30,163 bases of DNA from a virus (Duplodnaviria > Heunggongvirae > Uroviricota > Caudoviricetes): the IMG/VR virus record IMGVR_UViG_2850796239_000002; one strand, written 5' to 3'. A program made the translations under genes and the position numbers. The notes under the pieces are model-generated. The model saw only the letters and a program-made list of their open reading frames with translations. It ran no database searches and was not told the DNA's origin. Within the stretch, counting starts at the first letter, position 1, and each line of letters begins with the position of its first letter. Of this stretch, positions 1 to 934 are shown piece after piece.

Positions 1-738
1 TCACTTCGGGTAAGGCTGAATCCTGAATAGCTTAGTGTTTAGTCGCTTTTTTGCGCGCTTGTTCAGGAACCTGATGTAACGATATTGATTAAATTTGTGC
101 GCCACGGCCCGCTCCTTATTCGCTCGTAAATATTCGCCGCGCTTCCCTCCACGATTAATCGCATTCATCGTTATCTCGTGATACCACTCACCGTCCAGTT
201 CGTAGAATGTGCTTTCATGGCTGCCAATAAAATCAAAATTTGACGCCTGATACACAACACCTGCACGCCCGCAACGTTCGTCTGCAAAGGACTGAACCCA
301 CTCCACTGACGGATACAGTAACCTGATGGTTTTCAGCGCGTAGCTGATGGTCCGTGATTCAGAGTTGCGGGGCATGTCGTCGTGTAGCCACATGCGGTTC
401 AGTTCCATATAGCCCCGGTTATCCGTTTCAAGCACAACGCGACGCCCTGAGTTGGGGTTAAGGGCATATCCCCACTGAAGAACACCAACCAGATCACGTC
501 CACTGAATACGCCCAGATGCAACCAGGAGTTATTCACAAAACGGCGGGAATAATGCTTTGTCTGAATGATTGTGCGGGCCAGCCAGCAGGATATGGTTTC
601 AACGCGCAGCTCCCTTGAACCATAGCCGACAATCCGGCCTTCATACTCAATAACGCAGGGTTTTGTCAGAATGTGTGATTTCTTCTCTTTTCCCACAACA
701 CAGCTCCGTGGGATGCTCCCGGGCACTCGATATGACAA
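1..738 (-). CDS. mom: Mom-like DNA modification protein (Mu mom homologue); true start uncertain because the ORF overlaps the 3' end of com by 92 bp
   Basis: 245-aa minus-strand ORF ending at the window edge (stop = rc of 1..3); immediately downstream of and overlapping a com-like zinc-finger ORF, as in Mu where com precedes mom at the right end; position after tail-fibre genes matches Mu order. Identity is from remembered similarity, not a search. Confidence 0.55.
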
Positions 739-832
739 TGTAACGTTTACAGCGAGGACATTTGATTTCTATATGCTTACAACCTCCTTTAAACAGCAAT
801 TTATTGCAATTTTTACAACGAACAGAATCCAT
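647..832 (-). CDS. com: Com-like zinc-finger translational activator of mom (61 aa from internal Met; track ORF extends to 892)
   Basis: Sequence [33 protein letters not shown]... carries the CxxC...CxxC zinc-finger pattern and ~62-aa size of phage Mu Com; stop TGA = rc of 647..649; overlaps mom start. Confidence 0.6.
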
Positions 833-906
833 AACTTCCCCCAGTGTAATAACAGGATATCGCTGCCCGGAGGGCTGGGGGTATTTAATCACACTTGATG
901 CAAACC

Positions 907-934
907 GACGATCGATATGATGCTATCGATCGTC
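907..934. promoter_or_regulatory. Perfect 11-bp inverted repeat (GACGATCGATA / TATCGATCGTC, 6-nt spacer) carrying two GATC Dam sites upstream of com-mom
   Basis: Read directly: 907..917 and 924..934 are reverse complements; GATC at 910..913 and 928..931; lies between the Tfa stop (957) and the com ORF. By analogy to the Dam/OxyR/C-regulated Mu mom promoter region. Confidence 0.35.

Follow-up and report, generated by a model that had tools for sequence, protein, structure and literature searches.

At the start of a 30,163-nucleotide stretch of caudoviral DNA (IMG/VR record IMGVR_UViG_2850796239_000002; the window, below), two overlapping reading frames that resemble the com and mom genes of phage Mu are preceded by a perfect inverted repeat carrying two GATC (Dam) sites. 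What does this palindrome do? The mom operon is a textbook example of layered control of a toxic phage gene, in which Dam methylation, OxyR, the C activator and Com all take part. An earlier note on the window, recalling the OxyR- and C-controlled region upstream of Mu mom, proposed that the palindrome may be the operator of a mom operon. The answer given here develops that proposal: the minus strand of positions 1-956 probably holds a complete Mu-type com-mom cassette together with its own control region, in which the palindrome would be the core of a Dam-sensitive OxyR site. Both com and mom are read on the minus strand, which defines the mom-sense orientation used throughout.

The com-mom pair and its palindrome

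Judged by their sequences, both proteins are genuine orthologues of Mu Com and Mu Mom, and close ones. Mom matches Pfam PF25680 (E 2.3e-75) and is identical to Mu Mom at 218 of 231 positions, without gaps (94%, BLASTP); its sole match in the Protein Data Bank is 8bv8, 'Methylcarbamoylase mom', the crystal structure of Mu Mom (E 2.5e-151). Ser114 and Trp38 are retained and correspond to S124 and W48 in a 241-residue numbering, which an in-frame GTG at 726 would yield; a 2026 study of Mom that uses this numbering singles out both residues as functionally important (PMC13219725). Com matches the Pfam family Zn_ribbon_Com (E 1.3e-6) and shares 43 of 62 residues with Mu Com (69%, BLASTP), with all four cysteines of the CxxC...CxxC pattern kept. 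The two genes overlap by 50 nt (647-696), exactly as long as the overlap in Mu, and positions 1 to 822 are 87% identical to the com-mom DNA of Mu, D108, SfMu and related phages (BLASTN). Existing annotations of close relatives in E. coli genomes name the two genes 'Com family' and 'tRNA(Gly)-dependent adenine aminoacyltransferase Mom'; none of the proteins matched in NCBIfam. At Com residue 18 (779-781, minus strand) the window encodes Cys (GGCKH), and the rest of the lineage has Phe (GGFKH).

The protein searches, the 8bv8 match and the 50-nt overlap thus bear out the description of the pair as Com-like and Mom-like genes overlapping as in Mu. The length first given for Mom, 245 residues, did not survive: it belongs to the maximal, TTG-started reading of the open reading frame (ORF) 1..738, whereas the likely start is the GTG at 696-694, which is the start annotated in Mu and in RefSeq relatives and yields 231 residues.

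The palindrome is more than a chance occurrence. Its perfect 11-bp arms with two Dam sites 18 bp apart, as originally described, were confirmed in the sequence, with the GATC sites at 910-913 and 928-931. A census of perfect inverted repeats in the 30-kb window, with arms of at least 11 bp and a loop of at most 12, found just two repeats, which together gave 3 hits against a mean of 0.125 in first-order Markov simulations. The other repeat (11173-11201; GGAACAGCTGCC, 5 nt, GGCAGCTGTTCC) lies between a tail-assembly ORF (11232-11627) and a tape-measure ORF (9301-11145), both on the minus strand. GATC is about two-fold under-represented in the window, with 62 sites seen and about 117 expected from base composition; 4 of them fall in the first 3 kb.

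Conservation within the window lineage was assessed on 16 distinct sequences, among which the palindrome arms are the best-conserved part of the intergenic region. Only 2 of 22 arm columns vary and their heterozygosity is 0.011, compared with 0.13-0.19 in neighbouring intergenic DNA; elsewhere, variable columns number 8 of 22 and 23 of 33 in adjacent intergenic segments and 44 of 50 at the 3' end of the upstream gene. The exact dyad pattern was also looked for in 2.9 million viral contigs and matched 17 times, in every case (17/17) directly upstream of com. The conserved block starts at about TTTGTATAG, just past the stop codon of the upstream DUF4376 gene (959-957), and relatives with other upstream genes (L011, L030, L004) share sequence with the window only from about this point on. 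The block adjoins at least three different upstream genes, which means that com-mom and its control region move as a single cassette.

Relation to the control region of Mu mom

The comparison with other com-mom loci drew on Mom-query scans of viral contigs, which returned 160 locus hits (two scans, largely of the same contigs), and on 3 genome loci fetched in addition. These 3 were all that a single-protein Mom scan of genome contigs found, and alignments and viral contigs were used instead. For the comparison of lineages, sequences were anchored on the second GATC.

Aligned directly on the mom-sense strand, Mu reads catATAGaaaacGACGATCGAatcaattaaATCGATCGgtaatacaGATCg and the window gtATAGtttatGACGATCGAtagcatcatATCGATCGtcggtttgcATCa. 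The counterpart of the palindrome in Mu is the GACGATCGA...ATCGATCG block with GATC sites 1 and 2, spaced by the identical 18 bp, and the TATAG, GACGATCGA, ATCGATCG and ATC blocks are equally spaced in the two sequences. In Mu, gin extends into this block: its final codons contain the first GATC, and its stop codon falls within the spacer. Such matching blocks at the same spacing are more than the resemblance to the Mu mom promoter region from which the earlier note had argued. On the strength of this alignment, the palindrome is the positional homologue of the methylation-sensitive control site formed by GATC1 and GATC2 of Mu, and the resemblance is not due to chance. The proposal of a mom operator like the OxyR/C region of Mu stands as far as these two sites are concerned, but not in full: the third GATC has been lost, and the activator-site and promoter part has diverged from Mu.

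Several com-mom lineages have the GATC-18-GATC-13-GATC geometry. Counted from the second GATC, eight lineages (Mu, the window, L004, L005, L010, L045, L046 and L047) have an ATA(A/C/T)-type motif beginning at exactly 29 nt, and the first and second GATC are 18 bp apart in all eight except L045, where the distance is 31 bp. Mu, L005, L045, L046 and L047 also have the third GATC, which the window lineage and L004 have lost; L005, L046 and L047 are intermediates that link the window and Mu regions. The large lineage L055-L080 has the 13-bp GATC pair only. The distant high-GC com-mom loci (L089, L116, L119, L123, L135, L137, L150, L156, L163 and L168) lack a GATC cluster upstream of com; presumably they come from hosts without Dam. 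Upstream of com, these high-GC loci often have GC-rich dyads instead, such as ggcgggggcgc..gcaacgcccccacc. In L051-L053 and L058 (at about 1400-1500), a GATC-31-GATC-13-GATC array stands directly before the mom match, where a search with the com pattern found no com.

A putative OxyR site and alternatives

Likeness to OxyR sites was scored in two ways, with shuffled sequences as the null: against the contiguous 37-bp consensus (out of 20), or with the 15-bp dimer motif ATAGnTnnnAnCTAT (10 per dimer) placed register by register with spacers of 7, 16 or 17 bp. By the contiguous consensus the window scores 12/20, Mu 13/20 and E. coli agn43 14/20, and about 13% of shuffles reach at least 12; with such poor discrimination, this scoring was dropped as uninformative. 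The dimer motif gives a more specific arrangement. One register, ATAG-N7-CGAT, ends in the first GATC (site X) and scores 7/10 in Mu and 8/10 in the window, L005 and L046; its upstream ATAG is kept in the Mu and window lineages. In the other (site B), the 13-bp GATC pair brackets a dimer (G)ATCG-N7-CGAT(C), which scores 7/10 in Mu and 8/10 in agn43. Over all registers and spacers, the top arrangement in Mu (14/20) and in the window (13/20) is this same orthologous pair with a 16-bp spacer. The palindrome would accordingly form the inner symmetric part of a putative two-dimer OxyR tetramer site, composed of the host OxyR dimer sites ATAG-N7-CGAT (X) and ATCG-N7-GCAT (B) 16 bp apart, with the GATCs in the inner half-sites.

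OxyR binding at the window site and its dependence on Dam are what we infer from the sequence, and several points weigh against them. A score of 13/20 is reached by 8.6% of shuffles and is not significant alone. Site B is weaker than its counterpart in Mu (5/10 vs 7/10) and the third GATC is gone, and with its perfect 11-bp dyad the site is also more symmetric than OxyR sites usually are. BLASTN similarity to Mu stops at 822, short of the control region, so that the case for homology of the region is built on synteny, on the identity of blocks and on their conserved spacing. The promoter is not placeable with confidence: there is no sigma-70 match, the hexamer TATCCT is not conserved, and the position assigned to it is a prediction. 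The wide spacing of the two dimers fits an extended binding mode, with 31 bp from centre to centre, that Toledano et al. reportedly described for reduced OxyR in 1994.

Some of these features would also be expected had the palindrome been re-tooled as the operator of another dimeric DNA-binding protein, of host or phage origin, possibly still Dam-sensitive but no longer an OxyR site. The perfect 28-bp dyad with near-invariant arms is unlike the degenerate sites of OxyR, and in the best 7-bp-spacer register of Mu the window scores only 9/20 (4+5); the loss of GATC3 and the erosion of site B point the same way. Yet the half-site has no further copy in the intact 34-kb prophage relative of E. coli VL40, which rules out a role as a general phage operator; the ATAG stands upstream as in Mu, with exactly the Mu distances to the second GATC and the ATAC motif; and the best OxyR arrangement is orthologous to that of Mu. 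Much of the symmetry, moreover, follows automatically from two self-complementary CGATCG cores. A re-tooled operator is thus unlikely. There is a slim chance that, in the E. coli/Shigella lineage, what was a Mu-type OxyR site is now a perfect 28-bp dyad with two GATCs that is read by a different methylation-sensitive dimeric regulator or works as a bistable, agn43-like switch; if such a switch existed, a toxic DNA-hypermodification gene would be expressed in a subpopulation of cells, possibly even from prophage remnants.

The palindrome might alternatively act as RNA, forming a hairpin that terminates or insulates read-through from the tail-fibre operon and keeps toxic mom silent, with the GATC sites incidental. 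The predicted stem-loop is stable (-19.3 kcal/mol, z-score -3.0) and starts 22 nt past the stop codon of the upstream gene, and its arms are conserved with two loop positions varying. Against this, no U-tract follows the palindrome (GGUUUGCAUC), a terminator scan did not call it, and the invariant arms offer no compensatory change in support of pairing. Furthermore, the positions of the GATC sites and their 18-bp spacing are kept where the flanks are not complementary (L047), and the spacing is kept also in Mu, where the first arm is inside the gin coding sequence, making a role as an RNA hairpin quite improbable. An Rfam search of 1-1700 matched nothing. The overlap of the Mu sites with the end of gin and the absence of gin from the window lineage could suggest a remnant without function, left from the 3' end of gin and the Mu promoter region and brought along by com-mom. 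This is very improbable: across the 16 sequences the non-coding DNA around the arms varies far more than the arms do, the block is kept beside three different upstream genes, and the dyad is more perfect than that of Mu, not decayed.

Expression, neighbourhood and known systems

If the palindrome is the core of a Dam-sensitive OxyR site in a Mu-type cassette, the operon would be controlled at several levels. Methylation of the GATC sites by Dam would prevent OxyR from binding and leave the operon expressible; unmethylated sites would allow OxyR to repress it. A weak, activator-dependent late promoter would lie between the palindrome and com, and in intact relatives, which have one gene for a Mor/C-family activator directly ahead of lysis, this protein would switch it on, probably via AATACCCCCAGCCC. 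This element is similar to cATAACCCC, a sequence that oligos for the Mu late promoters lys, I and P have in common about 28 nt ahead of the -10 hexamer; Pmom depends on C (PMC4461284). Its ATA(A/C)CC motif begins at the same distance from the second GATC, exactly 29 nt, as the ATAACC of Mu and the counterparts in six other lineages. The AATACCCCCAGCCC block is among the best-conserved intergenic blocks (4 of 22 columns variable), and on the coding strand of the intact relative there are just two exact copies of its 9-mer with GCCC behind it, one ahead of com and the other within gene N. In the window, gene N (DNA circulation) contains AATACCCCCGGCCCC (9049-9063, minus strand), with the same 9-mer and GCCC, at the place of the Mu PP late promoter. 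The TATCCT hexamer at 859-854, the same as in the Mu PP oligo (PMC4461284 Table 1), was considered as a -10 element and downgraded, as close relatives read TGTCTG, TATCTG or TGTTTG; a sigma-70 consensus scan of 600-1700 found no promoter.

In the com leader, the G-run of a Shine-Dalgarno-like element is kept in 16 relatives. An inverted repeat, CCCCCAG (880-874) and CTGGGGG (844-838), was tried as a hairpin in the 5' untranslated region covering the com ribosome-binding site; it was set aside because most relatives read CAGGGGG without a compensating change and because its left arm is probably upstream of the transcription start.

At mom, a second level of control may operate on translation. 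In Mu, Com opens a translation-inhibitory stem at the mom start. The window and Mu have the stem sequence gagcatcccacggag...gtgggaaaagag in common, the CCCAC...GTGGG pairing with its GGAG loop is identical, and the stem is present in the predicted RNA fold. By analogy with Mu, the hairpin at 692..712 would be the counterpart of the inhibitory stem, and Com would bind the mRNA beside it, exposing the buried GTG and allowing mom to be translated; here the sequence is conserved, and the function is extrapolated from Mu. The adenine modification catalysed by Mom is established for the Mu enzyme, and its window orthologue would likewise convert DNA adenine to N6-carbamoylmethyl-adenine using glycyl-tRNA, protecting the phage DNA from restriction.

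The features discussed are collected in Table 1.

Table 1. Elements of the com-mom cassette, its neighbour and the insertion sequences of the window
Feature	Position	Strand	Details
mom	1..696	-	GTG start 696-694, stop 3-1; 231 aa; Mom adenine-modifying GNAT-family enzyme
com	647..832	-	ATG 832-830, stop 649-647; 61 aa; zinc-ribbon protein, activator of mom translation
Hairpin CCCAC (712-708)...GTGGG (696-692)	692..712	-	Encloses mom GTG start; GGAG (707-704) in loop
Shine-Dalgarno-like GGGGGAAG for com	835..842	-	Read from sequence
Candidate -10 hexamer TATCCT (uncertain)	854..859	-	Mu-like spacing from ATACCCCC motif
AATACCCCCAGCCC, late-promoter-like element, putative Mor/C-family activator site	872..885	-	Followed by small dyad GCCCTCCGGGC (875-865)
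CATC, relic of Mu third GATC	897..900	-	13 nt after second GATC; one G-to-C difference removes Dam site
OxyR-like dimer site B, ATCGTCGGTTTGCAT	898..912	-	Consensus match to ATAGnTnnnAnCTAT 5/10
Perfect 11-bp inverted repeat	907..934	.	GACGATCGATA (907-917), 6-nt spacer, TATCGATCGTC (924-934); 100% complementary
OxyR-like dimer site X, ATAGTTTATGACGAT	929..943	-	Consensus match 8/10; 3' half overlaps first GATC
DUF4376 tail-fibre-associated gene	957..1577	-	Upstream neighbour; stop 959-957; Pfam DUF4376 E 7.5e-17; PHROG 1141 'tail fiber protein'
IS3-family element	13633-15250		Interrupts tail module
IS66-family tnpB/tnpC	16828-18795		tnpC split; abuts remnant edge
Further transposase fragments	18977-20775
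IS4-like DDE transposase	26889-28112

The cassette is located at the right end of a decayed Mu-like prophage, of which a tail-module remnant (1 to about 16.8 kb) is left; this is as the earlier note had it, and the insertion sequences (IS) and frameshifts of the remnant agree. An intact relative is the 34-kb Mu-like prophage in E. coli VL40, whose tail module is 98% identical to that of the window and whose Mom is 98.3% identical; strain FDAARGOS_943 is another carrier of the lineage. The VL40 prophage is arranged in the order repressor, transposase A/B, Gam, one Mor-family activator (12897-13346 in L088), the lysis gene directly after it, then head and tail genes, two tail-fibre sets, DUF4376 gene, com and mom, with host DNA starting about 115 bp beyond mom. 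The window keeps the tail module and com-mom only, and its similarity to the relatives ends at about 16795. Compared with the intact VL40 prophage, the baseplate J/gp47 gene W (4916-5991) and the second 'prophage tail fibre N-terminal' gene (1534-2858) are split by frameshifts. The window has no homologues of the lysis, transposase, terminase, portal and head genes, and a tblastn search of it with the VL40 Mor-family protein found no match.

Past about 19 kb the window holds IS fragments and a split type VI secretion vgr gene. The latter (23505-25693) consists of two ORFs, one matching Phage_GPD and the other Phage_base_V, T6SS_Vgr and DUF2345; in E. coli VL40, a vgr gene is found directly beyond the mom end of the intact prophage. 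In the intact VL40 prophage (L088), an element of about 45 nt occurs both ahead of the lysis gene and ahead of the head protease (13346-13432 and 20763-20978). It holds a terminator-like hairpin, aagccggtaaatccggcttttttt, followed by tgcct.ccgca, and may be a terminator combined with a late promoter.

The remnant has no activator gene, and the operon is therefore probably silent; most likely it stays so unless a co-resident Mu-like prophage supplies the activator. The earlier note found it remarkable that a toxic operon had been retained in a decayed prophage. With some 3-4 disruptive events in about 14 kb of remnant, only about 0.2 would be expected in the 0.9 kb of com-mom, and with no activator gene the toxicity is probably unexpressed; that com-mom is intact is statistically unremarkable.

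The system is well studied, and the window has a lineage variant of it, an ordinary copy of the Mu com-mom operon. The window and Mu agree in gene order, the overlap of the two genes, the hairpin at the mom start codon and the location at the right end of a Mu-like prophage, downstream of tail-fibre genes; both also have two GATC sites 18 bp apart in CGATCG contexts, with ATAG upstream and ATA(A/C)CC at 29 nt. They differ in the upstream gene, which is gin in Mu and the DUF4376 tail-fibre-associated gene in the window, and in the number of GATC sites, three in Mu and two in the window, where the third reads CATC. The symmetric element is a 7-bp core in Mu and a perfect 11-bp dyad in the window, the window has 10 nt fewer between the ATA motif and the com ATG, and the left half of the C site (ATTAT in Mu) and the -10 element TAAGAT are not recognisable there. 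Finally, Mu has separate mor and C genes, whereas intact relatives of the window carry one Mor-family gene.

A similar layout is found outside phages. E. coli agn43 (flu) has a GATC-19-GATC-13-GATC array, compared with 18 and 13 bp in Mu-type mom regions, and its GATC sites also lie in ATCG/CGAT half-sites of OxyR-like ATAG-N7-CTAT dyads. By contrast, agn43 keeps three GATC sites, has its OxyR site downstream of the promoter, encodes a host adhesin and is bistable; phase variation is known for agn43 and is not known for mom (PMC2909390). The gtr operon of Salmonella phage P22 and opvAB are phage-borne or horizontally acquired and have GATC pairs inside OxyR half-sites, where methylation blocks OxyR binding (PMC2909390; PMC4856963). 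They differ in that the GATC sites number four, arranged as two pairs, the OxyR half-sites three or four, and OxyR is also an activator.

This copy of com-mom brings no new principle. Modestly new is the rigid geometry of the control region, with GATC sites 18 and 13 bp apart, ATAG upstream and the activator motif at +29, which is held across several enterobacterial lineages and mirrors that of agn43. The cassette moves together with its control region and comes to lie beside different tail-fibre neighbours. Its two-GATC, perfect-dyad variant, also modestly new, is in effect a natural mutant, usable to ask which GATC sites and half-sites OxyR needs.

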